From a virus (lineage: Duplodnaviria > Caudoviricetes), in IMG/VR virus record IMGVR_UViG_3300038345_000144: 64,000 nt of DNA; one strand, 5' to 3'. Positions 26,061 through 47,347 of this stretch are shown here, one piece after another. Below the pieces are notes generated by a model. It saw nothing but the letters and a program-made list of their open reading frames with translations, did no database searches and had not been told where the DNA came from. Made by a program: the position numbers and the translations under genes. Every line of letters begins with the position of its first letter. The stretch's first letter is position 1.

Positions 26061-26957
26061 TTATCCTCTCTGTCTGATTTTTTGTACCTCATTAAACATA
26101 TCGTCAACAGTCATATCGGGCGTATAATCGTACTGGTCCTCGGCTAATGATGATACGGCAAATTTCTTATTAACTGCGTCAATGAAGAAGGTATATGAGC
26201 CTTCATCACCCATATAATTCTCCTGCCACATCTTTTCAGGGATTTTCTCCTGAAGTTTCAGATGCTCAATAGCGAGGTTATCAAATGAGATTACAGCAAA
26301 ATTCTGTCTATATTCTGTCAAGATATTTTGTAAATTCTCGATATTTTCCAGAATTTCTGACTTATGCTCTTCGTAATAATCCCTACCTCTGCCTAAAATC
26401 TTATAGCCAAGAATTAAAAGTCGGAGGTTATGGTCGGATAAATTCTTCATATCCTCTTTGGTAATAACACCGTCAATGCAGTGAATAACCGTATTTTTGA
26501 GACCATTATTCCATAAAATATCATCTCTGGAGTTAATCAGGGAGATGCCAACACCATAAATGAGTTCTCTATCCTGCCAGTCCTTTAATGTCTGGAGATG
26601 GTCTTTGAGATGTCTCTGGTTGATGGTAAGGTTGCAAATTACTCCCTTTTCCTTCATTCTCTCTAAAAAAGCCTCCAAGTCAGGATGGGACAAATCGTTC
26701 GCATTGAGAGCAATTTCCTGTCCTCTATGGAGAGTATCAAAAAGAGGCTGGCTCAAATCAGCGTGTTGACCCTGTTCATTACAGCCTAAATAACAATATT
26801 TACAGCCACCGTTACATTTAGTAGTGATGGTTATATCGTTACTTTCTGCAAAGTCAGGTGTAAGATTATCCAAGTCATTTGCTCTAATCTTCGTACCGTT
26901 GCTGAAGAGTGTTACCTCATAATTTCCATTCTTGTAATGTGCTAATAATTTAGGCAT
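26061..26957 (-). CDS. radical SAM enzyme
   Basis: ITTKCNGGCKYC (CxxxCxxC); no C-terminal SPASM cysteines. Confidence 0.85.
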   Translation of the reverse strand: MPKLLAHYKNGNYEVTLFSNGTKIRANDLDNLTPDFAESNDITITTKCNGGCKYCYLGCNEQGQHADLSQPLFDTLHRGQEIALNANDLSHPDLEAFLERMKEKGVICNLTINQRHLKDHLQTLKDWQDRELIYGVGISLINSRDDILWNNGLKNTVIHCIDGVITKEDMKNLSDHNLRLLILGYKILGRGRDYYEEHKSEILENIENLQNILTEYRQNFAVISFDNLAIEHLKLQEKIPEKMWQENYMGDEGSYTFFIDAVNKKFAVSSLAEDQYDYTPDMTVDDMFNEVQKIRQRG

Positions 26958-26975
26958 AATTTCTTATAATTCCTT

Positions 26976-27215
26976 TCAACCTTGTATCTTTTCAAATTCA
27001 TCTTCTGTATAAATATGTAAGTGTAGTTCTTTTACAATATCCGCATATTCTTTAGAATACCCTTCAACTATTCCTTTGTAAATGGGTCCATAAGCCCCCT
27101 CTTCAAAATAATAGCAATTTGGACAATGATAGTGTGCTTCTACCACACCCCAACATTCTTCTGTATATTCTGAATACGGGTTAGATGTACCACATACGGG
27201 GCATTTCTTTTCCAT
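26976..27215 (-). CDS. small Zn-ribbon protein
   Basis: CPVC...CPNC; start at MEKK after GAGG. Confidence 0.7.
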   Translation of the reverse strand: MEKKCPVCGTSNPYSEYTEECWGVVEAHYHCPNCYYFEEGAYGPIYKGIVEGYSKEYADIVKELHLHIYTEDEFEKIQG

Positions 27216-27216
27216 A

Positions 27217-27489
27217 TTACTTACCTCTATATTTTTCAAACTTTTCGATGTCGAGAGCATCTTGCAACTCACTAATCAATTCTTCAACATTATACCACCA
27301 AATAGTCAACTCACAACGGTCAGAATTACTGCCGTTAGCATATTCTTTGGCTAAACTGCAAAATCTGACAGGCTTATCGTCAAATTTCACAACTTCTATG
27401 GTTGTATATGTTTCGCAGTAATCTCCAATTCCAGGTTCAGCCCCTTCGTGAATAATAGGTTGTCTTAATTTGATTTTTTCAAGTACCAT
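27217..27489 (-). CDS. hypothetical protein
   Basis: 90-aa ORF, AGGAGG SD. Confidence 0.7.
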   Translation of the reverse strand: MVLEKIKLRQPIIHEGAEPGIGDYCETYTTIEVVKFDDKPVRFCSLAKEYANGSNSDRCELTIWWYNVEELISELQDALDIEKFEKYRGK

Positions 27490-27503
27490 ATAAGCCTCCT
27501 TGT

Positions 27504-27833
27504 TTAGGTTTCATAGTTTTTCAGACCATTTTCAATCATTTCAGCACGGTATTGCCTGCCTGTAATCTCTTTTTCATCACGATGAGATATTAGAGGCAAG
27601 GTGTCCTCATATACAGCCTCAAGGTCTAAATCCGAGATATGAACATCGTTTGTAGAGGCAATTCCCCTACCTTCAGGGCTTAATAAGAAAATATTGAGAA
27701 TATTGTACTCATCACCCTGTATATAGTCACTGTCCTTCAAAAACGCATATTGCTGTCCTCGTCTTGACTTCATATATGCCTTTTTGCCTGCTGGAAGATT
27801 GTATAATTCATCATAAAAAGCCTTTAAGTCCAT
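27504..27833 (-). CDS. hypothetical protein
   Basis: 109-aa ORF with SD. Confidence 0.75.
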   Translation of the reverse strand: MDLKAFYDELYNLPAGKKAYMKSRRGQQYAFLKDSDYIQGDEYNILNIFLLSPEGRGIASTNDVHISDLDLEAVYEDTLPLISHRDEKEITGRQYRAEMIENGLKNYET

Positions 27834-27847
27834 AAAAATCTCCTTTT

Positions 27848-29101
27848 TTAGTCTTGAGGTGGGTAGGCAGGGTTTTTAACCGTAATACTTACCTCAAAAG
27901 TTCCTTCTAAATCATCATAGGTGCATTTTGTTCCTACAATTTTTAATCCAGTATCTTTAACACGGTCAACATATACTTGTTCTACTCTGTCAGAAAAATC
28001 ATCATTTCTATAAGCATAAATATCGCTATCACATATACCATAAATAATATCTTTTACGATTTTTTGCTTATCCTCACATCTCCAGAACATCTCTGATAAT
28101 TGTTGGATAGAATAACAAGGCTTGGGATATACCGTTACTAACGAGTGAGTATCAGTATCACAATCAGGCTGACTTATACAAACTATCACAGGACGGTGTG
28201 TGATTATACAATCTGGTTTCTCAAAGGTTATATCACAATTACCGTATATATCGTGCCAAACGCCAAAATTCAAATCAAGCGTAGGTTCATCTGCCATATC
28301 AGGGTTTTCTTTGAAAAATTGGCATAAATACTCCTCTAACTCTTTATTAAAGTCCGATGCCTCAATAGCGTCTATAATACTATCCCCTAATTTGGTTTCT
28401 AAAACATTACGGTCAATTTTTGACTTAACTTCTTGAGCACTTACTCGCCTTTCCCCTTCAACACTACCCTCGGCATACATTGAAATATCTACTTCCAACC
28501 AATTTCTATTGTGTTTATTTCGAGGTAAACATCCGTGAATTGTGTGTGCTATGATATTCTGTCCTTTAATATAAGGGTTCATAATGCCCATTTCATATAA
28601 GTCACAAACCGCCATAATATTTTTTGTATCAAATAATTTAGGCAGTTTTCTTTTAGCGTCTGGGTCACATTTTTTGAGTTTGTCTACTTCTGCTGGGGTT
28701 AATTCAATACTATGAACGGGAATATCTACCATATTAGATAAAACCTTTGGCGGGTAATGCGTATTGTCTGAAAGATATATCTGCTTACCATAACAAATCT
28801 GCTGAAGAGTTGTTTGATTTTTGTCTAATACATACCAATAATCTTTCGTTTGAAAATACACATCGTCAAAATGTGGTTCAAAGATTTTATTTTCTACAAA
28901 ATTAAGGAAAATATGATAATCTGGACTGCCCTCTAATTTGTGGGTATAATCAGGCTGAAGTTTCTTTATTGCGTCTTCAATTTTCGTTTCTTCATCAGGA
29001 AAACGCTTAACCAGCAACCTCAAAAACTCCACATCCTCCTTCGTCTTATCAGGAGCAGGGGGTTCTGGTATAGTTGATTGTTTAATTTTATCAAAGTCCA
29101 T
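27848..29101 (-). CDS. hypothetical protein, paralogue of 61193
   Basis: MD....KQ...FP.E; Y.LD....TL; D....LE.....FF; KNP at C-terminus. Confidence 0.8.
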   Translation of the reverse strand: MDFDKIKQSTIPEPPAPDKTKEDVEFLRLLVKRFPDEETKIEDAIKKLQPDYTHKLEGSPDYHIFLNFVENKIFEPHFDDVYFQTKDYWYVLDKNQTTLQQICYGKQIYLSDNTHYPPKVLSNMVDIPVHSIELTPAEVDKLKKCDPDAKRKLPKLFDTKNIMAVCDLYEMGIMNPYIKGQNIIAHTIHGCLPRNKHNRNWLEVDISMYAEGSVEGERRVSAQEVKSKIDRNVLETKLGDSIIDAIEASDFNKELEEYLCQFFKENPDMADEPTLDLNFGVWHDIYGNCDITFEKPDCIITHRPVIVCISQPDCDTDTHSLVTVYPKPCYSIQQLSEMFWRCEDKQKIVKDIIYGICDSDIYAYRNDDFSDRVEQVYVDRVKDTGLKIVGTKCTYDDLEGTFEVSITVKNPAYPPQD

Positions 29102-29113
29102 AGTAATTACCTC

Positions 29114-29329
29114 TTATTTTATGCTAATAAACACCGTATTATCATTGATGTCAATATCGCTTACCTCACGCTCAAACCATTCCTTCTCTTCATCGGAGGC
29201 TGGAAAGTTCATCTTCTTCTTGAGTTCGTGAATTCTTCCTGAATAATAGATGTTATTGCCTATTTCATCTGATAAACAGCAATCCATAAGAACGCTGTGC
29301 CATACCTTCAAAAGTGCTTTAAGGGTCAT
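29114..29329 (-). CDS. small hypothetical protein (family with 31443 and N-terminus of 34309)
   Basis: E.EV..I...D..V.I..K C-terminus. Confidence 0.7.
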   Translation of the reverse strand: MTLKALLKVWHSVLMDCCLSDEIGNNIYYSGRIHELKKKMNFPASDEEKEWFEREVSDIDINDNTVFISIK

Positions 29330-29331
29330 AA

Positions 29332-29769
29332 TTAGTCCTCCTCAATTTCATAGTCAGGATTGCCTCTATAACTCTCTAATTCCCACGGCTCACCATCTTC
29401 CCAAGTAAAGTGAAATCTACAATACATTCCAAACAAATAACCATTGAACCAAGTTAGATAAGGTCTGCTTTGGTAATAATTGTCCCCCGTGTATTCAGGA
29501 ATATCAACGGGCTTACCGTCAACAAATACCTTTTGTACTCCCTTATAGCCTAAATATGCTAAAAAATCAGACAAGCGACCCTCTTTCTCTGCACTTTGAT
29601 ATTCAAGGGAGGGACCATCCATTTCTTCACCGTCCCAGTCATAATCATCTTCCTTTATAGAAGTATCAATTTTGATTACTTTGGGTATGGTATATCCTGC
29701 AATTTGAGTTACAAAAGCACAACTGGACGAACTATTTGTCTCAAAAACTTCTCCTCTAATTTGTATCAT
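29332..29769 (-). CDS. ETNSS-motif protein, subfamily A
   Basis: MIQIRGEVFETNSSSSC. Confidence 0.8.
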   Translation of the reverse strand: MIQIRGEVFETNSSSSCAFVTQIAGYTIPKVIKIDTSIKEDDYDWDGEEMDGPSLEYQSAEKEGRLSDFLAYLGYKGVQKVFVDGKPVDIPEYTGDNYYQSRPYLTWFNGYLFGMYCRFHFTWEDGEPWELESYRGNPDYEIEED

Positions 29770-29781
29770 ATAGTATTCTCC

Positions 29782-30489
29782 TTAACCAATTTTCACTACC
29801 TCAAATTTAGTAGTAGCGTCTTTATCCTGAATTAACTTACTTAATTTTTCAATCATTTCTACCATTTGATTGCCCTCATCGCCTTCAAAATTAAAGTTTT
29901 TCAGGAGCGTACATAATCGCTCTGCTGTCTCAAAGGAACCACCTCGTCTGCATACATCGGAGGCAACTAAAATCACAAATAATGTGCCAAAGGATATTTG
30001 CTCATCAGATTTTTCTGCTACTATTCTTTGAAGCGTATTGTCAAAATCTATGTAGTCCATATAGGTATTATAGACATCAATGGCTTTTTTCAAAAAGGAA
30101 AAGTTTTCCCCGTGTTCATAGAGTTTTACATAGTCAAAGCACTTTATCCAACAGAAAAATGCCAGTTCGTAATTCTCTTGAAGTTCACTTATATAACCCT
30201 GTGCCATCCATTTTCTCAAATATTCAGGCATCTCTTTAGCGTTAATAATATTCTGGTAATTATCGGAAAATACATAAGCCCTTACGGTCTCATCTACTTC
30301 CGTATTACAAGAATACACAAAATGACATATAGGGCAAATTCCTACTAACTCCAGAAATTCGCCCTTATCATCATTATAAATATCCTCGTAGCGGAGGTTT
30401 TGTTCCCACTTCCATTTACGAGGTTTTATTGCCTTGTTACAACAAGGACAGAGTGTTTTATTACCGAAATCAAAACTTACCTTAAACAT
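29782..30489 (-). CDS. Zn-ribbon plus helical-repeat protein (DUF2225-like)
   Basis: CPCC...CPIC; D.CRR.G.FE.A. Confidence 0.55.
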   Translation of the reverse strand: MFKVSFDFGNKTLCPCCNKAIKPRKWKWEQNLRYEDIYNDDKGEFLELVGICPICHFVYSCNTEVDETVRAYVFSDNYQNIINAKEMPEYLRKWMAQGYISELQENYELAFFCWIKCFDYVKLYEHGENFSFLKKAIDVYNTYMDYIDFDNTLQRIVAEKSDEQISFGTLFVILVASDVCRRGGSFETAERLCTLLKNFNFEGDEGNQMVEMIEKLSKLIQDKDATTKFEVVKIG

Positions 30490-30503
30490 AATAAATTCCC
30501 TTC

Positions 30504-30974
30504 TTATGTGAGCCTAATGTGGAACGATTTAGCGTCTGGACCGTATTTTTGGGTAATACCCCATTCATAATGGTCGCTCTCACAAAAAGCGATTGACTTT
30601 GAGCCAAAGAAGATATTAGCAAAGGTACTGCTACTTCCTGCAATAAATCTACCACTAAAACCGTTTTCCTGAATATCCTTTACAATTTCCATTACTTTAG
30701 GGTCATCACATTTAATGTCCTTTACACCAATAGCATATAAAGAACCGATAATGCGTGTGATGTAATCCCACTCGTCCTTGAGGCTATCAGCCCACAAATA
30801 GTGGACATTAAAGTAATAGTCAATCAGGTTTTTGCCCTTGCCTATTTCAATAAAATCCTTATCCGTAGGCAGTTCAATGCTTGTAGGAATATTGACTGTA
30901 TCATTTTCAAAATACACAAACACATTACAGTCAGAACTGTTAGTCTCAAAGGTATTACTTCTTATAACAAACAT
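30504..30974 (-). CDS. ETNSS-motif protein, subfamily A
   Basis: MFVIRSNTFETNSSDC. Confidence 0.8.
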   Translation of the reverse strand: MFVIRSNTFETNSSDCNVFVYFENDTVNIPTSIELPTDKDFIEIGKGKNLIDYYFNVHYLWADSLKDEWDYITRIIGSLYAIGVKDIKCDDPKVMEIVKDIQENGFSGRFIAGSSSTFANIFFGSKSIAFCESDHYEWGITQKYGPDAKSFHIRLT

Positions 30975-30979
30975 ATGGA

Positions 30980-31432
30980 TTAGCCTCCACCTAATAGAAT
31001 ATACGCTATATTTTTATATTCACCTAAATAACCGTCGTGACCATAATAATCTCTATTTTCGGTTCCAAAAAACAGATTAAGTATGTCAGACTCACCAGCA
31101 CAATGCCACATACAGCGAGGCTTTGGATAACCTAAATCTCTTTCAGGGTCTCTCTCAAGTTCCTTTTTCTCGGTCTTGATAGCCTTAATAAAGTCGGTAT
31201 TTGAGCCATTATAGATGATTTTATCAACACCGTGTCTATATAGCCAGTTGGCTAATTTTTCGGACTCTTCTGCATCCAGTTCTCTAACAACTTTACGGAA
31301 AATATCTCCCGTATCATTATCAGCCGACAAATCAATTGTTTTAGTAAGTGATACCTCTTGCTCTTTTGGAATAATAAGAGCGTGGCACTCGGAACTATTA
31401 GTCTCGAATAATCCATATCTAACATTAAACAT
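30980..31432 (-). CDS. ETNSS-motif protein, subfamily A
   Basis: MFNVRYGLFETNSSECH. Confidence 0.8.
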   Translation of the reverse strand: MFNVRYGLFETNSSECHALIIPKEQEVSLTKTIDLSADNDTGDIFRKVVRELDAEESEKLANWLYRHGVDKIIYNGSNTDFIKAIKTEKKELERDPERDLGYPKPRCMWHCAGESDILNLFFGTENRDYYGHDGYLGEYKNIAYILLGGG

Positions 31433-31442
31433 AAATATATCC

Positions 31443-31643
31443 TCACTTCAGCATAATAATTGTAACGCTGTCATCTGACCTAATTCTATCAACTTCACTC
31501 TCAAGGATTTCCGTCTTATCAGGACCATCATAAGTAGCACGAAAATCACAACAATTTCCCTTATAAACTACTCTTCCGATAGTATCGTGGACAGCAATCT
31601 TGTCGTAAGCACTAATTAAAGCAATAACCTGTTCCATTTTCAT
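31443..31643 (-). CDS. small hypothetical protein (29114 family)
   Basis: 66-aa ORF with SD. Confidence 0.7.
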   Translation of the reverse strand: MKMEQVIALISAYDKIAVHDTIGRVVYKGNCCDFRATYDGPDKTEILESEVDRIRSDDSVTIIMLK

Positions 31644-31657
31644 AAGCCAAATTCTCC

Positions 31658-32140
31658 TTAATTGCCTTTTTCAATGACATCGTACTTATCGTGGTCATAA
31701 TCATCTGCATCAGGCGGGTCGTCACTATTATCGTTTCCTGTGTCTACCCAACCACCGCCAAATAAAAATCTATCTAACAAATTCTCATTGGCAAATAGGT
31801 CATTTAACGGGATTTCGTAGCCGTGGTCAATATAACCTGGGTTATTCTCGGCATATTCCCCGTCGCCCCACGCAGTCCATCTTAATTCTGGGCAGTCAAT
31901 CTCTTCAACGCCCTTACTCTTGAGATATGCAATAAAGCGTTCAACTTCTTCTCTACCACTATCCACGCAGGCTTGATAAATATAATTGATGGTATCACTC
32001 TCGGAACCAAATGACCAGCCGTACTCACCACCAGTTAAATGTACCCTTTTCGGGATATAGATGTTTGCGTCTTTAGGGATAACTAAACAGTGTACTGAAG
32101 AACTGTTAGTTTCGTATAATCCGTATCTAATATTTATCAT
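31658..32140 (-). CDS. ETNSS-motif protein, subfamily A
   Basis: MINIRYGLYETNSSSVH; GYIDH; LDRFLFG; TGNDN. Confidence 0.8.
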   Translation of the reverse strand: MINIRYGLYETNSSSVHCLVIPKDANIYIPKRVHLTGGEYGWSFGSESDTINYIYQACVDSGREEVERFIAYLKSKGVEEIDCPELRWTAWGDGEYAENNPGYIDHGYEIPLNDLFANENLLDRFLFGGGWVDTGNDNSDDPPDADDYDHDKYDVIEKGN

Positions 32141-32146
32141 ATTAAA

Positions 32147-32461
32147 TCACTCCTCAAAATATGGTTTTTCTCTGTCCTGTAATGTCCACACGACAATTTT
32201 CTCAATATGCAGATTTTCAAATCCGCACTGCTTTATATTATCATTAAGTGCCTGCTTTAGTCCAGAGAAATCGAACTGTGGTTTACCAAAAAGATAAAAA
32301 AATCTCTTATTAGCCACATCGTCTTTCCACGCACCGTCATTACGCTCTTCGACAAAGGTAAGTCCGTGGTCTCTTAAAACCTCATCACAATCAGCGTCGG
32401 TCCAATCCATATATTCTATGGAATTGCCCTTAACGAACATAGTAACATCGTACTGTTTCAT
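32147..32461 (-). CDS. hypothetical protein
   Basis: 104-aa ORF with SD. Confidence 0.75.
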   Translation of the reverse strand: MKQYDVTMFVKGNSIEYMDWTDADCDEVLRDHGLTFVEERNDGAWKDDVANKRFFYLFGKPQFDFSGLKQALNDNIKQCGFENLHIEKIVVWTLQDREKPYFEE

Positions 32462-32477
32462 ATCAATTTCTCCTAAC

Positions 32478-33116
32478 TCACTCTATTGGTGCATCAAAAT
32501 TTATGTTACTGCTATCATATTCTGTAATATCTAATGGCTCGACCTCAACACGGGTAATTGTGAGTGTATGATTTCCCAGCGTATTATGAATAAAATCGTT
32601 AAGAAAATGCTTCAACTCATCATATTGGCTTTCAGGAATGGGAGGATATATCTTATGAACCTTTACGCTGTTTTGCCATTCGTAATAATCTTCCAATTCC
32701 TCGTCTCCATCACATTCGCAAATACCGTACATCTCGAATTTCTCTTTAGCCCTAACCGTCTTATCTTCTTCTTTATACTCAAAATCGGTTTCCCAAACCG
32801 TATCGAGGTGTCCGTTGATAATTTTATTCATACCATTAGCAAAGTCAGGGTCTAATTTACCTGCTGTAAAACCTAATCCATAGAAATCCTCTCGCTTAAT
32901 TTCCAAGAAATCACTCATATCATCTATTAAATTAGTTTTTTCATACAGTAAATCATCATCTTGAGAATTGTCAGGAACACTCATAATCTGATTATATTTT
33001 TCAATTGAAAAATCAGGATAATAACGACGCTCCCACTCGATAAACTCTTCAAGGACAAATTCCTGTTTAGCGTACATAATTAAAGTGACAAATAATTGAA
33101 TTTCGTACTTTCTCAT
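32478..33116 (-). CDS. acidic hypothetical protein, related to 23041
   Basis: 212-aa ORF with SD. Confidence 0.75.
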   Translation of the reverse strand: MRKYEIQLFVTLIMYAKQEFVLEEFIEWERRYYPDFSIEKYNQIMSVPDNSQDDDLLYEKTNLIDDMSDFLEIKREDFYGLGFTAGKLDPDFANGMNKIINGHLDTVWETDFEYKEEDKTVRAKEKFEMYGICECDGDEELEDYYEWQNSVKVHKIYPPIPESQYDELKHFLNDFIHNTLGNHTLTITRVEVEPLDITEYDSSNINFDAPIE

Positions 33117-33128
33117 ATCACTTTCTCC

Positions 33129-33893
33129 TTATTTCTTTCTCTTTAGAACCTCTTGAGTCATTTTTTCCTGAAGAGCCTCATAATAATCGTCATCAGAGGA
33201 ATATTCCTGTTCCGCAATCTGCTCTGAAGACTCTTCATAAATCTCATCAAAAGTATCTAAATCAATGCCCCACTTCTCTCGGAAGGCAGTTTTATACTCC
33301 TCCCACTCCTTTTTCCTCTGCTCTTGGGCTTCTGCATCCTTTTTGAGTCTTTCAATCCATTCAGGCTTAAACTCCTGTTTAGCGAGAGAACACTCTTCCC
33401 ACGGAATTTCCTCATCAGTGTCACCGTCAAAGACTTTAACGACATAGTTAGGGTCTTTTGCCATCTGCTGAATACGGTAGCCGTCTAAATAATTGATACC
33501 TGTGGGACTATCTTCTATCTCGCTTCCCCAACTCTCCCACTCGGAAAAAGACTCATAACCTTCAGCAAAGAAACTCGCCATCAAATCTTCTTTAGCCATA
33601 TGAGAGTGAAATCCTGTGGCTCTTTCTTTATCTACTGTAACTGGAGCACCATCGACAAAAATCTCTTCAACTCCATTTTCCAGTAAGAAAGTAAAAAATG
33701 AGTTAGTATCATCAAAAGCAACTGCCCAACCATCAATTACATAGCGATAGTAACCGTCAAGGCGTGAGTCACCTCTTGAGTCAATTTGGACCGTTTTAGG
33801 GATTTTTATTGCGTCTGGACGATAACTGATTACACTAAATACGCAAGCACTGGAACTGTTTGTCTCAAACATACATCGTCTTATCTGTAACAT
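33129..33893 (-). CDS. ETNSS-motif protein, subfamily A, with acidic coiled-coil tail
   Basis: MLQIRRCMFETNSSSAC. Confidence 0.8.
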   Translation of the reverse strand: MLQIRRCMFETNSSSACVFSVISYRPDAIKIPKTVQIDSRGDSRLDGYYRYVIDGWAVAFDDTNSFFTFLLENGVEEIFVDGAPVTVDKERATGFHSHMAKEDLMASFFAEGYESFSEWESWGSEIEDSPTGINYLDGYRIQQMAKDPNYVVKVFDGDTDEEIPWEECSLAKQEFKPEWIERLKKDAEAQEQRKKEWEEYKTAFREKWGIDLDTFDEIYEESSEQIAEQEYSSDDDYYEALQEKMTQEVLKRKK

Positions 33894-33904
33894 AATGTTT
33901 CTCC

Positions 33905-34294
33905 TTATTGCTCTTCTAAATAAAAACTAACTGCTGTGTAATCGTCAACTGATGCTGTTGTAATATCCGCACAACGAGAAGGCGGGAAGGCTCCAAAGTA
34001 GTAAATGGCATATGTACCTACAAGATGGTCAATCATATACTCATCATCATCTTCTACATACTTCTGATACTGCCTTTGCCAGTAACCATCGCTGTCCTGC
34101 TTTAACTTCTCAAGAACATCTTTGCCCTTAATGAATGTAACAACACCATCGTCATTCTTTTTAGCAAAAAGACGCTCTTCAAGTTCCTCATCTTCAGACC
34201 TCTTCCAAAGTTTGTAGTCTGGGGTCTTCATAATGATAAGGGAATGAACGCTGGAACTATTAGTTTCAAAGATACAATTTCTTATCTGTAACAT
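33905..34294 (-). CDS. ETNSS-motif protein, subfamily B
   Basis: MLQIRNCIFETNSSSVH; V.FI.G..V.EK.K; YTA.SFY. Confidence 0.8.
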   Translation of the reverse strand: MLQIRNCIFETNSSSVHSLIIMKTPDYKLWKRSEDEELEERLFAKKNDDGVVTFIKGKDVLEKLKQDSDGYWQRQYQKYVEDDDEYMIDHLVGTYAIYYFGAFPPSRCADITTASVDDYTAVSFYLEEQ

Positions 34295-34308
34295 AGTATT
34301 TTCTCCTT

Positions 34309-34752
34309 TTAATCAAGAGGCTCAAACGGAGGTTTGGTAAGATAAACTTCTGAACCATTAGGCATTTCTCTATACTCTAAATGACCTACCGTAAACCTAT
34401 CTCCTTCTCTTTTACGCAATTCGTGTGGGAATTGACAAAATAACTTACCGTGAATACCATCATTAGCAACGGCTCTTAATTTATGTGAGATGGGGTCATA
34501 GACAACTTCAACAACTAATTTGCTATTGTCTAAAGGCTTACCACCCTTAACCTCAATTACGATTGCTCGGTTATCACCAACAGTAATATACTTGATTGAT
34601 TTTTCCAGTAATTCAGGCTCAATGGAGTCTTTTCCCCAGTTATCATACGCTACGGGGGCAGTATGCCAGTCATTTTCTTCGGTACAGTCATAGACCAAAT
34701 AGTGACAATTTACATCAAACTCGTTGTTTTCAATAAGTTCTTTTAACTTCAT
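34309..34752 (-). CDS. mosaic hypothetical protein
   Basis: N-half like 29114/31443, C-half like the C-terminus of 5018. Confidence 0.75.
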   Translation of the reverse strand: MKLKELIENNEFDVNCHYLVYDCTEENDWHTAPVAYDNWGKDSIEPELLEKSIKYITVGDNRAIVIEVKGGKPLDNSKLVVEVVYDPISHKLRAVANDGIHGKLFCQFPHELRKREGDRFTVGHLEYREMPNGSEVYLTKPPFEPLD

Positions 34753-34754
34753 AA

Positions 34755-35036
34755 TTAGCCTCCTAACAAGCCAATGAATACTAAACTATGGACATCAACT
34801 CCACCCTCTTTGGTTGCAATAAGCCCTTCAGGGGTTAAGCCCTGATAATCAAACTGGTAAACATAGCCATAAGAAGTAACTGCAAATACAGGTGAACCTC
34901 TATCTGTGGCTGTCAAAAATAATTTAGTATTATCATCACCAAGAATTATTAACCCGTTAGGGTCGGGAGTTACCATATCAGGCATTAAAGCATTATTCAA
35001 AGACAACTTTCCGTAAGCAAATGTACTAAAAGTCAT
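34755..35036 (-). CDS. hypothetical protein
   Basis: 93-aa ORF with SD. Confidence 0.7.
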   Translation of the reverse strand: MTFSTFAYGKLSLNNALMPDMVTPDPNGLIILGDDNTKLFLTATDRGSPVFAVTSYGYVYQFDYQGLTPEGLIATKEGGVDVHSLVFIGLLGG

Positions 35037-35058
35037 AGTAATTTCTCCTTTTCTTTTA

Positions 35059-35760
35059 TTATTCGGGTCTTTCTAATGGATTTTTACACGAAAGGTACAC
35101 AAGAATTCCTGTTTGCTCGAAACTATATTGTGGTTGTGTACTATTCATACCCAGTTCTATGTTCTTAAGCCCAAATTCCTCTAACCTGTTAATTAAGGCA
35201 TTGGCTATTTTTTGCGGGTCTACGCATAAGACATAGTTACTGGAATTTTTCTTTGTCATAAAGAGTTCGGTTTCCTCAAAATATGGTTCAAATATATCCT
35301 TGACGGTCTCATACTTTACGACCTTATTTGTATAACTTGACCTAAAAAAGAACCCAAAAGTTGGTAATTTTGACAAGTTAATTACATAAAATGTCTGGTC
35401 ATTACAGATTATCTCTGCTGACAAGGCATAAGGTCGGATTATTGTATGTTCGGTTTTTGGACCTTTAGGATATATCTCATATTGAGGAAGATTGACCAAG
35501 AAACTAAAGCCTAAAGTAGGTCTATATCCCGTGTGCTTTGAGTCGGTAAGCATTTTCTCGATAAATGTCTGTAAGTCATCATCTGGGATATTATCTATTG
35601 CAGATATAAAAGTATTGATAGACTCTGCCACATCTGCATCAAACTGCTTTAGTTTATCACTAAAGTCCATTCGGACCTTGTTAAAGTCATCTTGTCTTGC
35701 TTTTCTGTCTGCGTTAAAGGAATTTACTTTATGCTGTACTTGGTCAATATTTATTCCCAT
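35059..35760 (-). CDS. hypothetical protein
   Basis: 233-aa ORF with SD. Confidence 0.75.
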   Translation of the reverse strand: MGINIDQVQHKVNSFNADRKARQDDFNKVRMDFSDKLKQFDADVAESINTFISAIDNIPDDDLQTFIEKMLTDSKHTGYRPTLGFSFLVNLPQYEIYPKGPKTEHTIIRPYALSAEIICNDQTFYVINLSKLPTFGFFFRSSYTNKVVKYETVKDIFEPYFEETELFMTKKNSSNYVLCVDPQKIANALINRLEEFGLKNIELGMNSTQPQYSFEQTGILVYLSCKNPLERPE

Positions 35761-35771
35761 AAGGGTTCTCC

Positions 35772-36158
35772 TTATTCTTTAAGAATAGCGTAACTATCAC
35801 TAATCAAATCAATAGCAAAATTACCCCAGTCACCTGTGGCAATCTTGTTTTCTACCTGATTTACAGTGCCTCTTGCGAACATACCGTTCTTAACACCCTC
35901 GTTATAAGGGTGGCACAAGCAAGAGTGGAACAGAACAATCTCCCTGCCCTTGATAATTGCTAAAATGTCCTCATCGGTCATCTTCAAAAATCTATTGGTG
36001 TCAATGGAGTTATCCTTTTCGTTCAACTCAATACGATGTGCAGGGGCTACTAATGAGTTATTACACTTGTCGCAACAACCCATTGTGTAGGGTACGATAG
36101 GTTCGGGAAAGTTACTAACTTCTGTGAAGGCTTCCCCACAAATATCACAAATCTTCAT
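35772..36158 (-). CDS. Zn-finger hypothetical protein
   Basis: start at MKICDIC after AGGAGG; CCDKCN. Confidence 0.7.
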   Translation of the reverse strand: MKICDICGEAFTEVSNFPEPIVPYTMGCCDKCNNSLVAPAHRIELNEKDNSIDTNRFLKMTDEDILAIIKGREIVLFHSCLCHPYNEGVKNGMFARGTVNQVENKIATGDWGNFAIDLISDSYAILKE

Positions 36159-36171
36159 AGGCAAATCCTCC

Positions 36172-37179
36172 TTAATCGTTAGTAAATACTGAAATACCGC
36201 CCTTACGGTGTGCCGCCAAATAGAAATCGTGGCTGTGGAGGACATAAGTATTACCGCCTGCTCTCCACCAAATCAAGTCTGTAATCTCTCTGCCGTTATA
36301 CTCAAGAGGTGGTAACTCTCTTACATTTCTGATAACAACATTACCAGAGTCGGGGTCAAAGTCTGTTGAGAGGGATTGATTTGTCATATCCAATACATAA
36401 GCCTGACGGAAATCGTTGATTTCGATAATCTCGCCTACATAGTGGTCATCAGTATTGAACATCTCTGCTACTGCCTTTTCCTCGGCTTTCTTGAACTTGA
36501 TTGTACTTCTCTTGCTCATACCGTCCTTCATCATACCCATCCAGAGGTAGCCAGGTATTACATACTGACCGTTTTCGGTATCTCTCTCAAAGCCTAACAA
36601 GGAATTAACGCCATCAGTACAAACCTTGATAATACCAAGTCCCTTTGGTCCGATATACTTAACAGGAACCTTGATGTCAAATTCGCTGTTATATCCCTTT
36701 GGTGATACAGTTACATTGATATAATCGTTGTTAAAGTCCTTCTCACCCTCGTTGTGGATAGCATACTCTCTGTAATCAAGAGCGTGTCCGTGTGCATAAG
36801 CGTTCTCTTTTGCTGTGGTAATACCAACATAAGACCTGATTGGCTGAATACCCTGCAATCTTCCAGCACAATAGTTAACCAAAAGGGCAAAATAAAGGTC
36901 ATTTGCCGAAATGTCATAACCAAAGCCTGTTCTTTCCATCAACTCGTCCCAGAATGTAAGGATTGTAGTGATGTCCTCAAACAACTCATCGTCAATCTTG
37001 CCTGAAAAGATTTCGTCCATCATAGGACTAACTTCACTCTCCCAGCAATCAACAAGGTTGTCTAACTGGAATTTAGCAATCTTCGGGTCTCTTGCAAATC
37101 TGCTGTAAATTCTGCCGTTGTCCTTATCTCCGTTCATTACACGGGTAAGAGCAACCTCTACTCCATAATCTTTAATCAT
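36172..37179 (-). CDS. hypothetical protein
   Basis: 335-aa ORF with SD. Confidence 0.8.
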   Translation of the reverse strand: MIKDYGVEVALTRVMNGDKDNGRIYSRFARDPKIAKFQLDNLVDCWESEVSPMMDEIFSGKIDDELFEDITTILTFWDELMERTGFGYDISANDLYFALLVNYCAGRLQGIQPIRSYVGITTAKENAYAHGHALDYREYAIHNEGEKDFNNDYINVTVSPKGYNSEFDIKVPVKYIGPKGLGIIKVCTDGVNSLLGFERDTENGQYVIPGYLWMGMMKDGMSKRSTIKFKKAEEKAVAEMFNTDDHYVGEIIEINDFRQAYVLDMTNQSLSTDFDPDSGNVVIRNVRELPPLEYNGREITDLIWWRAGGNTYVLHSHDFYLAAHRKGGISVFTND

Positions 37180-37197
37180 AGTGCTTGTATTTCTCCT

Positions 37198-37413
37198 TTA
37201 TTCGGTAATTCCCCACTTCTTTTCGTACTCTTCGGTAGTCATTTTGCCTTCAAGAAGTAACTTAATGTCATCATTCTTGTCAGTAAACTTCTGCTTACGC
37301 TCCAAGTCTTCCTTTGTGGGCGGGTTTGTTTCTCTGTCGTGCATACGCTGTAATCTATCAGCGTCCATCATAAATGCCTTTACATCTTCGGGTAAGTCTT
37401 TATACTGTCCCAT
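37198..37413 (-). CDS. small hypothetical protein
   Basis: 71-aa ORF, GGAGG SD. Confidence 0.7.
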   Translation of the reverse strand: MGQYKDLPEDVKAFMMDADRLQRMHDRETNPPTKEDLERKQKFTDKNDDIKLLLEGKMTTEEYEKKWGITE

Positions 37414-37432
37414 AATTTACCTCCAAAATTAT

Positions 37433-37795
37433 TTAATCTGCATAGTAGAAACTAATTGCTGTGTAGCCGTTCTTTTCGGCTGTTTCAATATCCATATAGT
37501 TAGGTGGATAAGCGTCAAGTTCTCTAATTGCAAAGGAAACAACATCATATTCTTGGTCAACATACTTTGCCCATCTGTTGTTCTTTTTCATTTTCTCAAT
37601 GACCTTTTCACCTGAAATGAACTTTACATCGCCACTATCCTTATCAATAGTGTTAACCTGCATAAACATCATATCTTTAATTTCGCCACTGTTTCTTGAA
37701 TTCCACCACTTGTTGTATTCTGCGGTAGAAACAATGACTAAAGTATGTGTGCTTGAACTGTTGGTTTCAAAAAGTCCTGCTCTAATCTGGAACAT
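37433..37795 (-). CDS. ETNSS-motif protein, subfamily B
   Basis: MFQIRAGLFETNSSSTH; YTAISFY. Confidence 0.8.
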   Translation of the reverse strand: MFQIRAGLFETNSSSTHTLVIVSTAEYNKWWNSRNSGEIKDMMFMQVNTIDKDSGDVKFISGEKVIEKMKKNNRWAKYVDQEYDVVSFAIRELDAYPPNYMDIETAEKNGYTAISFYYAD

Positions 37796-37807: not shown

Positions 37808-38419
37808 TTATAAAAATGTTTCAAGTTGGTCTAACTTGTTTACTGTACCATCGTCATTAAAATCGACTATGGCTAATTGATAAACACAATATACATCGGT
37901 CTTCCCTCCGAAAAGGGAGTTTTTTATCGTATAGTGGTTAGGGCTATGAAGGTGTCCGTGTATAACTGTTTTAGGCTTGTTATCCTTGATATACTGGGAA
38001 ATTCCTTTTAACCCACAATGAGCGTCGTCTTTATTCGGGTTATATGGACCATCGTGGCAGAATAAGACATCGGCTTTAGGTAGGCTCTTACAGACTATTA
38101 TTCCCTCTGGCTGTTCATAGCCAAATGCCTGTGTCGGCTTATATCTATGGGAGCCATTCAGTCCCGTATAGTGAAAATTGCCCAATTCCATCAACTTATG
38201 GTCGAAATTAGGGATATTTTGTAGGGTATCAGGCATATCGTGGTTGCCATAAAGCCCGTACATCAGAATATCCTTAAAATGCTCTTTCATCTGATTGACT
38301 TCAGCAACATAATGGTCGCCCAACAGGATAACCCTGTCCAAATCCACTAATTTATCCTTATTTTTCTCATATACACCCCTATATATGCCGTGGGTGTCGG
38401 TTATTACTAAAACTCGCAT
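37808..38419 (-). CDS. calcineurin-like metallophosphoesterase
   Basis: DTH, GD, GNHD, H, GHLH motifs. Confidence 0.9.
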   Translation of the reverse strand: MRVLVITDTHGIYRGVYEKNKDKLVDLDRVILLGDHYVAEVNQMKEHFKDILMYGLYGNHDMPDTLQNIPNFDHKLMELGNFHYTGLNGSHRYKPTQAFGYEQPEGIIVCKSLPKADVLFCHDGPYNPNKDDAHCGLKGISQYIKDNKPKTVIHGHLHSPNHYTIKNSLFGGKTDVYCVYQLAIVDFNDDGTVNKLDQLETFL

Positions 38420-39169: not shown

Positions 39170-42100
39170 TTAAGCAGTTTCTTCAGCACCGTCTTCTCTC
39201 TTCTTTTTGAAGATAAAGACCTTCATCATACCAGCCATCATTATGCAGATAATAATGACAAATGTTGTGGTTGAAGTGTCCTTGAAGCCCGTAGGACTTG
39301 GGACAACTGAACCTGTGATATGGTATGTTTCATTACTGTTATAGTAATACTCTTCAGGGAGGTCAATACCGTTGAAGGAGATAACCTGACCCTTATTTAC
39401 GATAAGAGTATTAGGGATAGCAGTATTAACTGTGCAAGGAATACCGATTGTGTAGGAAGACCTACCAGAAGTAGAACTACCCAACATACCGAACTTGACT
39501 GTTAATTTATTGCCATCGACAGTAACCGTAATGTTGTCATAACTGCTCAAAGGCTTATCGTTAATCAAGATGTTTGCCTCATCTATTGTTACAGAAGCAG
39601 GGAGATTATCAGTAACGATTACATCAGTTAAGTCTGTATTCTCTCTGTTCTCAACCTTCAATGAGTACAAGAGCATATCGTCCTTGAATACTTCGTGCGG
39701 TGCTGTTTCTGTACCACTTTCAGGGTTAGAAGTGAGCGTTACAAGAAGTTCAGGTAAATGAATTGTAGCATATGTTGTATTTACGGAAGGAGACTGCTCA
39801 ACGAATGTTCCGTTCTTCTTCTCATCACGATAGAGAGTAGCGGTATTGTTGACCTGTGTTTCCTCGAAAATAGCATCTGCCTTCTCATAGATTACGATGT
39901 TAAATGCTCTTGCGGAGGAGCCATTACCTAAAATGAACTGCTCGCCGTTGACATCCTTACTGTAATCTACAACGATACCATAGACCTTCAATCCCGTAGG
40001 AATAGTCTTTGTCCAACCGTGCTCTGTGTCAATGTTATCAAAATCAGGTTCAGGGTCTAATGAGTACCAAACTTCACCCTTTGATGTTGTTGCAGTACCA
40101 TCAGGCTTGTAACCACCGATTGTAGGAACATAAACGCTCTGGAGTGTACCAGCACCGTCTAACTTATCCTTGATAACCATATTTGTAGAGATGGTATCTT
40201 GGCTCTGACCATAGAAAATCTTGTAAGAATAGTTCTCACCTGGAACGATATTTACAGTAGAAGAATACTGGTTATTACCACGGGCAACTGAACCAAACAA
40301 ACCATAAGCCTCTGCCTGTGGAGCGTAGTAATACAATGTTGTTGCCGCAGTTGATACATAGTAATCGTCTCTGTACTGCTCGTACAAGTCAGCATAATAC
40401 TGTCTGTCCATTCTCATATTTCCATAGTAAGTATAGATGTTGTCATATACCTCGTCCATATTAGAAGTATTGACGAAGAACATAGAGATATTACCCTCTG
40501 TTCCCAATATGAGAGCGTCTTGGTATGTACGCTGTGTTAAGAACTCTACATATACCTGTGAGTATTTAATATCGTGCATTGTGACGATAAGCATTGTTCT
40601 ACCACTATTCTGCCAGTTGTTGACAAACTCGTAGTCATAGAACTCGGTAGAAATTCCATAACCGTCCTTACTTGAGTCGTTATTGTTATTACCAATCAAG
40701 TAAACGGCTGAAGGGTTAGGTGATGCCTCTGGTAAGAGTACATAGAAAATACCTGAACCAATCGGAGTTGTTGGAGTATTTCTGTCAGCGTGGTAGTTTC
40801 TTACGCCTGCAAATGCCCAAATACTTGAAACTCTGTTTGTAGGGTCTTCAGTTCTTTCATTGTTCTTGATACTGGAGTCAATAGACAATGCTGAAGATGG
40901 CAACTTGACAAGTTCATACAAGTCCTCAAATGCGTTAGGGTCAGTGTGTGTATGGTTCAAAACATAGTGCTGTGACTCCATACTTGCCTCGTCAAAGTTG
41001 AGGTCCAAATGACAACCAAGTTTAATTACTGTGGAAGCGTTAATATCAAAGTCAGACTGTACCTGTGTCTTTACTCTTGCAGAAGACTTTAAGGTAACGA
41101 ACGGGTCGAGCAATACTCTGATATAGAAGTGTTCAGAAGAGTCTGTAACGAACTTCCAAGCAATAGTACCTTCAGGGAGATTAACTGTTTGTGCTCTATT
41201 ACCCCAGTATTCATTCTCGGTAAATAAAATCCAATCAGTATCGCCTGCCCTCTTAACATAGATAGAGTAAGGAATATCGCTTACATAAGTATCTTTTTGC
41301 TTTAATGTCCAAGCGACATCTTCATTTGTACTTACATCAGCATCATAAATCTCGATTGTGAATGTGAGTTTTGAGAACTCATAGTCATTCTCGCCCAAAA
41401 TTATGTTACCGCAAGCAGGGTTCCACATATTGTAGTCATCGCCTGCACCAGAACTCAAGTAAACATCACCAATATCCATCCAGAGATTTACATTCTGGTT
41501 AACCCAACGGAATGTAGTATTTCCATCTGTATCAGTAAATGATGTCCACGGTGAAGTGTTCTGATACTTAACTGCCCACTCAAGTCCAGAAACGCCAGAA
41601 CCATTAAGGATTGCGTTCTGTGAGTGCTTTGTAGGCTCGTAACCAACTCTACCGATTGTGAAGTTAGCCTCATCTCTCTGATAGAGTGCAAAACGATAAT
41701 CTACTGCCTCTGCCTCGATGATATGTTCCTCACCATCAAAGATGACTTTAGCGGTATTGTGTACGATAGTTCTACCACTATCACCCAACAATGATGTAGG
41801 ATAACGGCAGAGAACATACATAGCACCGTAACCACTCTTACTATTTACACTATCACAATTCTTGTAAGTGCCTTGCTGACCATATCCAACAACTTCACCC
41901 TCGCAGTCGTCAACGACATAGAGAGCCATTGAAGAGTAGTCAGATGAAGGGCAATAGAAAGATGTAGAATAAGTCCATAATACATAGAAGTAGTCATCAG
42001 AGTCTTCAGGTCTTGAACCCCAACTATTCTGCCATACAGTATAAGAAGTACCTGTACCTCTTGTAGATGAATAGGAGTTACCGCTTCTTGGAGCAACTCT

Positions 42101-45100
42101 TACATTCATTTCATAAGACTTCTGTGTATCAAACTCACCATCGTTATCAGTATCAATCATAAAGATAACAGGGAAAGTGACATTTGTACCATAAGAAGTG
42201 TACTGTGATGAATAGTTAATTGTAATGTTAAGACCTGCTGAACTGTTAGACAAGTTCGCATTATTTACAATAGCCCAGTTGTTAGAGTCATAATCCTTAT
42301 AAGAGAAGAACATTTCACTTGATGTGTTAGGATATTGAGGTAACTCTGAAGCCAAGTCTGTGTTATTAGCATAGAAGATGGTCTTCGGAATGATAATCTG
42401 AATGTTTCCTTCAGGAATATCGTTACTGTTTTCCATTACATTGAACGCAACGTGCAAAGACGCTGTGTGTGAGTAACTACCATTTGCAAAATACAAGTGA
42501 CTTGCATCAATCTTATCAGAATTGTTTGCCCAATATGCAGAACACTCAAAAGAGATACCATTCTCATTGATTGTAGCAGTCATAGGCTCAAATACTGGAT
42601 GATACTTTGTACCGAGTGCGGGTTTTGTTGCAGTTGTGAGTTGGTTGCCCTCGTCATCAAACCAGCCTACAAGTCTCTGGTCTGCAACGGAAATACCAGG
42701 CAACGGTCCAAAAGTAACGCCTGCAACAACCTGTGTAGGTCTATAAGTTACACCGTCAATAGTAACGGCTGACTGATATACTCTACCATTTGTTGTGAAG
42801 TTGTTAGTGTAGCCTGAAACATCAAAGTAGACATAGCCACGCTCACCCCATTTAGCAACAAGCGTTGTGTCTTTCTTAAAGTATGATGCTGAAGCAGTTG
42901 AGTATGTTATTGTTGTACCATCTTCCTTTACCTCATACCAATACAAGAATGAATAATCATCTTTTGTAGGGATATAAGAACCAAGACCAACAGCACTATT
43001 ATAAGGAACTGTTATTGCCTCGATTTCGGAACCGCCCTGTGTATCAAATGTGATTGTAACAGGTTCGTGGTTATCTTCTTCAGGGTTGTATGGGTTATAC
43101 GGATTATCCTCTGGGTCAAGAGAGTCACCGTTTCGCTCCCAAACAGCGTGAAGAACATTGTTTGTAGTGAGGTCAAGAACAGTCTCGTTGACAATTACCT
43201 GATTACCGTCCTTATCTACCCACTTAACAAGGTCATAACCCTGTCTTGTAATTGAAGGCAAGTAAGTTACCAGATAATTTTTAACATCAGGGCTGTAACC
43301 TGAACCAGGATATACACAAGAATATGTTGAAGTCTGACCGTTGATTTCACAATCATACTCAAAAACAACTTTAGGTTCGAGCATAAGGTAAATATCAGCA
43401 GTATCACCATAAGTTACACGGTAATCATAAGCATAAACATAGTCATAATGATACTTTCCGTTACCATCATCAACATAAACGCTGTTATAACTATATCTAC
43501 CAATCTGCTTTGACCAGTCAATACTGTTTGTGTTAGGGTCAATAGGGTCATCAACGGCAAACAATGTAGAATATACATATCCGAACTTGTCTTCAGGCTT
43601 GAATTCGTTATTGCTTGTAAGACCGTCAACATAGTTATTTGACCACTTGAAAGTAGAACCGCTTAAATAAATGCTGAAATATGTTGAGAAGTTGTTGTGT
43701 GTCCAGTTATCATTACTATTTCCTCTGTTATAAGGAACTGCAAGAACTAACTCTCCGTCCTTGTACCACTGTCCATAGAACTTAACTTCAATATCTTCAG
43801 GGTTCTCATATTGAGAAGTTACATAATCAGCATAATGCACTCTCAAATAGACAGGAGGCATTATATAAGCATAAATGTCGCAACTTTCGTTGAATTTAGT
43901 GTTGTACTGATGTACTAATCCCCACGGATTGTCGTCCTCACCATTATAGGAATAACTAATTCCACTATCTTCATTGTAGAAGGTATAACCATTTTGAGAG
44001 AAGATTTCCTTACCGCTTTCAAAGTCACAATCACTACGCTTACTCCAGAACATAACGGTATCATCACCGAGTCTCTGGTTATAAGCAATACCAAAATCAA
44101 TAAACTTTGCACCTGTTGTAGTTTCAATAATTACAGGGTCATACATCTGTGTACCGTCATAGGCATTGACATAATGAAGCGTAACTGTGATATTTTCAAT
44201 TTTTCTCCACTGTGCGTAAAGAGTGATTGTTTCACCAGTCTGTGCTAATCCCTGAACACCGTCAGAAACCGCATAAGAAGTACCAGTGCCGTCAGCAGAG
44301 GTATTGTAACCTGTGAGTATGTATTCAGCATCAGAACTGAAAGCATTTGACAAAAAATATAACTCGTCAATAGCCAATGTCTTTGTAATAGGCTCAAGTC
44401 CTTCTCTATTACCATCAATAATCAATGTGTAAGTGTCGGAAACATCCCAGTGAGCATACAAAGAAGTAGCAGTCATTTCAGGGTCATATTCCTCATATTT
44501 GTTGTCGCTTGAGTCATACCAACCTGTGAATGTATAGCCGTTTCTTGTAGCCGTAGGGAATGAGAAATCAGTTGTTTCAGTAGTAATATTGAGGGCATTG
44601 AAGGAAATTTCGCCACCATTACCATAGAAGTTAATTGTCTTCTGAACCTTTACCCAAGTACCAGCATATTTAGGTAAGAAACCGTTACCTAAAAGTGTGT
44701 TAAGAGGCATTGTTGTATTGTCAGAAAGTCTTACCCAGTCCATAGTATAAGATGAACCATCAGTTGTAGTCCAAGCCTTATATCCCATACTGGTTGATAA
44801 ACGGTTAGACCAACCTCTACCAACGATAACCTTATTAAGACTATTACAGCCACCCAAGAAGTAGCCCCAATATGCACCTGTATAAACCGTCCAACCAGAA
44901 AGGTCAACTGTTGTAAGGTTAGTACAGCCATTAAATACATTAGCACCGCCCCAAGAAGTATCTGTAAGACCTGTCAAATCCCAATTAAATTTAGGGAAAG
45001 TAGTCAAACTGGTACAATTTTGGAACATACCATATATAGTAGTTACCTTGTGCATATCCATCGGTAAGTCTACTGTGGTTAATGCTCCGTCATTTAAGAA

Positions 45101-46189: not shown

Positions 46190-46190
46190 T

Positions 46191-46844: not shown

Positions 46845-47347
46845 AGTCCAAAGCGTCTCACATCAAGTATTACTACACCAACTATCTGACTTTTATCAAT
46901 AACTCCGAAATCTCGGCTGTCCGTATGAAACTCTCGGTTATCACACAAAACATAGTATTGATTTTCTCCTAAAGTAACCTTGTAGTCGCTATTGGAGTTG
47001 TCAGAAGTATAAATATTATCTTCATACACCAAATAGTTATTCTGGAAAACACTACCACTCTGACTTACATAAATCTCGTTATTTGGGGTTCCTACGAGTC
47101 GTCCGATGTATAATTCACCGTTGTATTTATAAACAACCACATCTCGTAAGGTAAAATCCGAGTTAATTCTCGAATAAACTACGGTGTCGTGAAACTTAAT
47201 GTTTGGCGACATACTATCGGAGTCCTGCGTAGTTACACCAATAACGAAAGTAAAGGTTATAATCAGCATTAGTAGAAAAACACCAAGTTTTGCTACTATC
47301 TCAACACCAGTTGAGTGCTTTTTTGTAAATTCCTTTATCTTATTCAC
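46841..47347 (-). CDS. signal peptidase I-like pilus chaperone (SipA/LepA type)
   Basis: SMSP, DVVVY, YIGRLVG (catalytic K replaced by G), DNR...DSR.FG. Confidence 0.8.
   Translation of the reverse strand: MNKIKEFTKKHSTGVEIVAKLGVFLLMLIITFTFVIGVTTQDSDSMSPNIKFHDTVVYSRINSDFTLRDVVVYKYNGELYIGRLVGTPNNEIYVSQSGSVFQNNYLVYEDNIYTSDNSNSDYKVTLGENQYYVLCDNREFHTDSRDFGVIDKSQIVGVVILDVRRFGL

Follow-up and report, generated by a model that had tools for sequence, protein, structure and literature searches.

Why do seven otherwise dissimilar phage genes begin with the same short run of amino acids, and what ties them to an enzyme encoded further along the same strand? The question is raised by a window of 64,000 nucleotides (the whole stretch of DNA analysed here) from the viral record IMGVR_UViG_3300038345_000144 (Caudoviricetes), in which seven minus-strand open reading frames (ORFs) share the start M-x-x-[IV]-R-x-x-x-[FY]-E-T-N-S-S, called the tag below, and lie upstream of a gene for a radical S-adenosylmethionine (SAM) enzyme. 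Overall, enzyme and tagged proteins form a conserved, essentially phage-specific module of two parts, a small radical SAM enzyme without SPASM cysteines and a set of tagged proteins with unrelated bodies. The reading that we favour, with about even confidence, is that the N-terminal tag is the substrate of this enzyme on several folded proteins.

All seven ORFs listed in the first-pass annotation of this DNA were found again at their positions on the minus strand, and a six-frame scan of the 64 kb detected ETNSS solely at their N-termini. From amino-acid frequencies we estimate about 0.1 chance occurrences of ETNSS in the window, none of them fixed behind a Met. In each copy the Glu is residue 10 (7/7), a Cys or His follows at residue 16 or 17, and the ORF is preceded by a GGAG-type ribosome-binding site. 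The motif codons of the seven copies differ at synonymous sites, and across all loci the 277 unique tagged ORFs draw on both codon families of Ser and of Arg at every position; the motif is therefore under selection as protein, and reflects neither an RNA or DNA element nor recent gene conversion. The bodies had been divided into a subfamily of five and a subfamily of two. The smaller group stands: the copies at 33905–34294 (129 residues; DYKLW .. YTAVSFY) and 37433–37795 (120 residues; EYNKWWN .. GYTAISFYYAD) cluster together and are divergent members of a widespread body, type B. The larger group does not hold together, as only the copy at 31658–32140 (160 residues) is a canonical member of the second widespread body, type A (GEYGW .. 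GYIDH .. TGNDN .. KGN; phrog_28997 at 2.3e-11). The copies at 29332–29769 (145 residues, starting MIQIRGEVFETNSSSSC) and 33129–33893 (254 residues, starting MLQIRRCMFETNSSSAC, with an acidic coiled C-terminal extension) form a cluster of their own, and those at 30504–30974 (156 residues, starting MFVIRSNTFETNSSDC) and 30980–31432 (150 residues, starting MFNVRYGLFETNSSECH) stand alone by BLAST, with a weak, collinear and non-significant likeness to type A. The body of the former has relatives beside the enzyme at two other loci (L003, L004); that of the latter is a BLAST singleton. These four copies keep the tag and lack the conserved D-H and N-D-N residues of type A.

The enzyme gene follows the tagged copies in the same direction, as first described, although not directly, since 2.4 kb and five ORFs separate it from the nearest copy. 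In relatives, the co-occurrence of the motif with this radical SAM clade proved near-obligatory in both directions. In the forward direction, 80 IMG/VR loci were retrieved by alignment to the enzyme (40–58% identity), and a tagged gene was present at 78 of them, encoded on the strand of the enzyme and in most cases abutting it; of the two exceptions, one is truncated upstream and the other carries a type B body from which the tag has been lost. In the reverse direction, alignment to type A retrieved 78 further loci, of which 73 encode the enzyme, usually 0.4–1.9 kb downstream. Two of the five exceptions (L083, L134) are cut by the contig end, one (L084) lies on a contig of only 6.4 kb, and one (L128) is on the same 332-kb contig as L003 with the enzyme about 17 kb off, a copy spread like that of the window; the fifth (L086) has full flanks and no enzyme. 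Of 123 loci that have unique enzyme sequences, 122 carry the tagged family, compared to 48 for the next commonest neighbour. Judged from these gene neighbourhoods, tag and enzyme are very probably functionally coupled.

Pairings in other gut phages, which the first-pass annotation had mentioned, are real and were seen in IMG/VR loci, in Lak megaphages and on contigs of metagenome-assembled genomes. A tblastn search of GenBank phages placed homologues of the 31658 copy and of the enzyme 0.5–2 kb apart, both in Lak megaphages and in Ma-LMM01 with its relatives. In Lak-A1 five tagged genes come directly after the enzyme, and in the Microcystis phage Ma-LMM01 gp130 is tagged and gp128 is the radical SAM gene. 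The intervening Ma-LMM01 gp129 (L001:8727–9065) matches a phage ProQ C-terminal-like domain (6.7e-15), an RNA-chaperone-related fold, and the neighbouring gp131 is annotated as a histidyl-tRNA synthetase and has no Pfam match. A survey of 185,579 species genomes found the enzyme on only 20 contigs, all from metagenome-assembled genomes and 17 of them with tags, and the module is therefore essentially viral.

Alignment of 187 tagged ORFs gave the consensus M-(K)-[RI]-Q-[IV]-R-x-G-V-F-E-T-N-S-S-S-[TV]-H-S-[LI], in which E, N, S, S and S are invariant, Arg at −5 is kept in 186, Phe at −1 in 184 and His at +7 in 178. Gly at −3 is found in 104 of the 187, and the tag has no invariant Gly. The constant distance of the motif from Met1 claimed for the window applies there; in relatives it relaxes slightly, with the Glu at residue 10 or 11 among the 187 ORFs and at residue 15 in one distant relative. 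The latter is a 340-residue protein with the shifted tag MKNKIKIVRRIGLPETNSSSSHAV (L179:4962–5981), whose gene neighbours that of a distant enzyme relative (29% identity), and the pairing therefore reaches beyond the enzyme clade studied here. A 34-column tag profile matched 7,299 clusters (50% identity) at E ≤ 1e-3; among the 150 best of these, nearly all have the tag starting at residue 1. Two internal tags in this search (P0236, P0237) start with a Met and resemble two adjacent genes read as one; a search with residues 1–40 turned up no fused tagged forms of greater length.

Behind the tag, proteins of 92–261 residues in total carry bodies of which two dominate. Type A proteins have 141–242 residues, the marks GEFGW, GYIDH, TGNDN and KGN, and the conserved polar residues Y53, D105-H106 and N-D-N; type B proteins have 92–154 residues and show EYxxWxNG shortly after the start and AFGYYGYD at the C-terminal end. 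Once the tag is removed, the two bodies show no detectable relation (hhalign, probability 0.15%). The usual operon order is tagged A, tagged B, enzyme, and most phages have this fixed A+B pair, with one to seven tagged genes of unrelated bodies per system and seven in the present element. None of the tagged proteins matched Pfam, NCBIfam or PADLOC, and in PHROGs the only match was phrog_28997, to which no function is assigned; it spans residues 2–139 of the 31658 copy and is reached by the other six copies via the tag alone. The 115 homologues of the 31658 copy are all unnamed. A type A profile gave chance matches only against PDB sequences, and the type A model had no Foldseek match in the PDB at E ≤ 0.001, a best Z of 2.3 in a wide VIA-align search, and one match in BFVD, an uncharacterised myovirus protein. 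A lead to Tad2-like proteins, from an ESM Atlas cluster at TM 0.56, was dropped as a 261-residue tagged protein has no Tad2 match in Pfam, and the model that the ESM Atlas offers for a type B copy is of poor quality (pLDDT 0.42). The fit of E-T-N-S-S to the bacterial N-glycosylation sequon D/E-x-N-x-S/T was treated as coincidence, the tagged proteins having no signal peptide.

The AlphaFold2 (AF2) model of the 31658 copy is confident overall (pLDDT 91.7), with its first strand starting at residue 15 and residues 1–10 at a pLDDT of only 51, as would fit an exposed tail. Because the bodies are unrelated, the other conserved residues of type A are lost in several copies and residues 1–10 are modelled with low confidence, the tag is a portable exposed unit and not part of one conserved active site.

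The enzyme (26061–26957, minus strand; 298 residues) matches phrog_16999 ('Fe-S oxidoreductase') at 3.4e-37 and carries the sequence CNGGCKYC, in which C48-x3-C52-x2-C55, the motif for the SAM-cleaving [4Fe-4S] cluster, is invariant in 38 diverse homologues. Its score against the Pfam radical SAM profile PF04055 is 13.7 bits, below the gathering threshold of 29.5; the clade is too divergent for this profile, and membership of the superfamily is based on motif and fold. No Cys other than C48, C52 and C55 is invariant in the 38 homologues, so that neither a SPASM nor a twitch cysteine set is present; C59 occurs in part of the family only, the rest having CHExS. The AF2 model of the enzyme (pLDDT 95.3) has the partial TIM-barrel fold of solved radical SAM enzymes, which make up nearly all of the 34 chains that aligned with it in VIA-align 2 at Z ≥ 8. 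The best matches were SkfB (Z 17.3, root-mean-square deviation 4.2 Å, 269 residues aligned) and SuiB (Z 16.4, 4.2 Å, 277 residues), and further peptide or protein maturases were EpeE (Z 15.3), ChlB (13.5), anSME (13.5) and PqqE (13.3). MiaB appeared only at Foldseek rank 25, and PFL-AE was a middling neighbour (Z 10.0). A highly conserved N-terminal extension of about 35 residues (YKNGNY..DGTKIR) forms three beta strands; the whole-chain alignments with SkfB and SuiB also cover it with their N-domains, although it is far shorter than a full, PqqD-like RiPP recognition element (RRE; RiPP, ribosomally synthesized and post-translationally modified peptide). A profile of the enzyme had no significant match among PDB sequences. 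The family comprises 5,145 clusters (90% identity) at E ≤ 1e-5, none of them named. At one locus (L105:7107–9554, IMGVR_UViG_3300045988_167787) the radical SAM gene is split at the cluster-binding motif by an intein-like insert: the N-terminal part is the ORF at 7107, and in the C-terminal part, from 8715, the insert ends in ...GILVSN and the enzyme resumes with CHENS. Inteins are typically found at conserved positions within important phage genes.

We favour the tag as the enzyme's substrate because one enzyme is paired with many unrelated bodies, the tag is strictly N-terminal and exposed, and the fold of the enzyme resembles that of maturases. In the mechanism that we infer, the exposed tag would be the enzyme's handle, and its first half (IRxGVF) would dock as a strand on the N-terminal beta extension, bringing the invariant E-T-N-S-S-S-x-H loop into the barrel. 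There, the 5'-deoxyadenosyl radical would take a hydrogen from the loop and leave a covalent change on the folded protein, for which conversion of a Ser to an aldehyde, epimerisation and a cross-link are candidates. One enzyme would thereby mature several proteins, usually the set of type A and type B and, in this element, all seven. The first-pass annotation had taken the motif for a recognition, modification or autoprocessing site serving a diversified family of effectors. That it is a functional unit tied to the enzyme stands, by the two-way linkage and the maturase-like fold; a covalent change, at whichever residue, is putative, none of the results speaks for Asn-Ser self-cleavage, and the name 'effectors' would be a guess.

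Binding of the two parts was also assessed by predicting a complex of the enzyme with type A, including SAM and the cluster, alongside three controls, a check that had been suggested for this pair. The complex scored 0.52 compared to 0.00 for the best of the three controls, and the runs shared at least 50% of their contacts with a partner pLDDT of at least 59, which supports binding weakly: the score mark is reached by 58 of 80 solved complexes and by two of 110 mismatched pairs, and at scores of 0.60 or below there are only seven of the 80 solved complexes, plus both passing mismatches. The prediction returned no interface, which is one of several points that weigh against the tag as substrate. 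Oxidation of serine by anSME depends on auxiliary clusters and epimerisation by EpeE on a cysteine as donor, so that both chemistries as known need a feature that is absent from an enzyme with no auxiliary cluster and no conserved Cys beyond the SAM cluster. Viperin (Z 15.2) and BlsE (Z 15.0), both small-molecule enzymes, score almost like the peptide maturases, and the fold therefore does not fix the class of substrate. In the window, the enzyme lies 2.4–10.8 kb from the tagged genes and is not adjacent to them. Finally, six to eight invariant residues exceed what recognition usually needs, and could instead mark an active site, and the fixed A+B pair of most phages would also fit obligate subunits.

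The last of these points belongs to an alternative explanation, possible in our view but doubtful, in which the tagged proteins are partners of the enzyme: the tag would dock adaptor or specificity subunits on it, and the substrate would be an RNA, for example a tRNA nucleoside rebuilt after anticodon-nuclease damage. What speaks for it, besides the A+B pair, is the company that the module keeps in relatives. In several enzyme subclades the tag-tag-enzyme triplet lies inside RNA-repair blocks (L006, L009, L113, L117 and L065; about 7 kb inspected on each side), for example in the order T4 Rnl1-type ligase, RlaP nucleotidyltransferase, Pnkp-like kinase with HD domain, tag A, tag B, enzyme and Thg1, with an NAD-dependent ligase further downstream; L006 and L009 have such a ligase. 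Elsewhere the neighbours include an Rnl2-type ligase, a second radical SAM gene related to the RNA methylases RlmN/Cfr (L055) or, in L117, a cysteine desulfurase of the NifS type. One or more RNA-repair genes were found within 7 kb at 57 of the 123 unique loci; by subclade of the enzyme, this applies to 10 of 23. Kinship among the loci inflates these counts. The association is thus recurrent and not universal, as it is missing in 13 of the 23 subclades, in the stretch of Lak-A1 that was read and, by tblastn, in the present window. As the metallophosphoesterase of the window does not belong to phrog_547, the phosphoesterase family seen beside the enzyme elsewhere, that candidate link was rejected.

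The predicted binding of enzyme and type A, being weak, fits subunits and substrates equally well. Against an RNA substrate, Pfam-type family searches found no RNA-binding domain in any tagged body, the nearest folds of the enzyme are peptide maturases and not RNA-modifying radical SAM enzymes such as MiaB, and copy numbers from one to seven with unrelated bodies suit substrates more than subunits. We take the repair genes as a hint to the biological setting: by comparison with relatives only, the module likely belongs to a phage block for RNA repair or counter-defence, and this neighbourhood suggests a missing step in the phage answer to tRNA-cleaving host defences. A narrower version of the substrate reading, which we consider unlikely, is that the enzyme makes a reactive group in the tag, such as a Ser-derived aldehyde, and that this group is the working centre of fast-evolving RNA-repair or counter-defence proteins.

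A further explanation is that the motif, with its Glu, Asn, three Ser and His, is the catalytic or ligand-binding site of a very divergent enzyme superfamily, which the radical SAM enzyme joins only in a common pathway. The invariant E, N, S, S and S and the His in 178 of 187 sequences are typical of active sites, to which type A adds Y53, D105-H106 and N-D-N, and the motif runs straight into the first beta strand, a position similar to that of the nucleophile loops of several hydrolase folds, which lead directly into a beta strand. However, a superfamily is difficult to reconcile with bodies that are not detectably homologous, with copies that keep the tag without type A's other conserved residues, and with a motif confined to the first 10–15 residues, unusual for an active site, whose residues 1–10 are modelled with low confidence. 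A common pathway alone would also leave the near-obligatory adjacency to one enzyme clade unexplained, and we regard this explanation as improbable.

We think it highly improbable that the tag is a cleaved leader, either a capsid-targeting sequence cut after Glu10 by a prohead protease or a site of Asn-Ser self-cleavage, with an incidental link to the enzyme: although the 10–11-residue leader ending in hydrophobic-x-Glu resembles the capsid-targeting sequence and protease site of T4, which is a short leader with the same end and a variable sequence behind the cut, and the bodies are as diverse as those of T4 internal proteins, the invariant T-N-S-S-S-x-H comes after the supposed cut, no head or protease genes recur nearby, and the two-way linkage to one enzyme clade is left unexplained. 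A glycyl radical enzyme with its activase was rejected, since the tag has no RVxG-type invariant Gly and PFL-AE reaches only Z 10.0.

The element itself was found again in bovine gut metagenomes of many studies, and its closest relatives are contigs of 330–470 kb. Strains in bovine gut runs vary at 29331–30523 and 31405–32076. In a contig from run X8, exactly the tagged ORF 29332–29769 is replaced, as is the segment 29839–30523. A low-depth contig joins the tag-proximal parts of the copies at 30980 and 31658, skipping 670 bases. The exact replacement of an ORF and the joined tag regions hint at a further role of the tags as recombination points at which bodies are swapped.

Nearly all of the approximately 110 ORFs of at least 90 residues in the window (1–64000) lie on the minus strand, the GC skew is uniformly negative, and no tRNA genes were found in it. 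A calcineurin-like metallophosphoesterase (37808–38419) is encoded directly upstream of the first tagged gene, and an FtsK/SpoIIIE-family ATPase (2614–3702) and a DUF1963 protein (14734–15426, 1.6e-46) were identified elsewhere. A secreted surface protein of 2,339 residues with a C-terminal membrane anchor (39170–46189) is followed by pilin-like genes (47377–48681, DUF7601; 48678–50015, SpaA and FctA domains), and the region 39170–50015 represents a Gram-positive-type surface apparatus on a very large phage-like or plasmid-like element.

The module is found very often and has no annotation whatever. Rumen and gut phages carry it, as do Lak megaphages and a cultivated cyanophage, which makes it testable at the bench, and the tag offers a simple annotation rule for thousands of 'hypothetical' phage genes. 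If the enzyme does modify the tag, this would be a post-translational chemistry new to viruses, and the compact pair of enzyme and tag could be used for site-specific protein modification. Literature searches on ETNSS, on phage or viral radical SAM enzymes and on RlaP or RNA repair together with radical SAM found no description of the module; Kaur et al. 2020 (PMC7159879) describe different radical SAM systems, with C-terminal peptides, and the phrase 'radical SAM' is absent from the jumbo phage study of Iyer et al. 2021 (PMC7824862).

Compared to known systems, the hypervariable small internal proteins of T4 are similar in their tandem genes and in a 10-residue N-terminal leader ending in Glu. 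In the tagged proteins, however, the invariant residues run past the Glu and form the most conserved part, and the gene linkage is to a radical SAM enzyme and not to head genes. Closer are the RiPP maturases SkfB, SuiB/StrB, EpeE/YydG, PqqE and ChlB, which include the nearest folds (Z 13–17), act on several neighbouring substrate genes with a common conserved recognition sequence and a variable remainder, and in SkfB and SuiB have peptide-binding N-domains that align, in whole-chain alignments, with the enzyme's extension. In contrast to these, the extension has about 35 residues instead of a full RRE, SPASM and twitch cysteines are missing, and the conserved part of the putative substrates, proteins of 100–250 residues, is the part that is likely modified. 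The short leader plus core of a RiPP precursor is not seen, given the length of the tagged proteins and the confident fold of the one modelled, and in the neighbourhoods of the enzyme loci no protease or exporter genes recur. The sulfatase system is similar in another respect, as a single radical SAM enzyme (anSME or AtsB), its fold among the neighbours of ours, matures many whole, folded proteins at a short motif, which contains Ser and lies close to the N-terminus. The target there is (C/S)-x-(P/A)-x-R, whereas here it would be E-T-N-S-S-S-x-H at residues 10–17, in a viral system without SPASM auxiliary clusters whose bodies show no relation to one another or to sulfatases. By analogy, the phage module would come closest in its working to the pair of anSME and sulfatase or to a RiPP maturase that serves multiple precursors, yet without the defining features of either, and if large phages indeed make a reactive group in the tag, this would be a protein-level analogue of sulfatase and RiPP maturation that has so far not been known in viruses.

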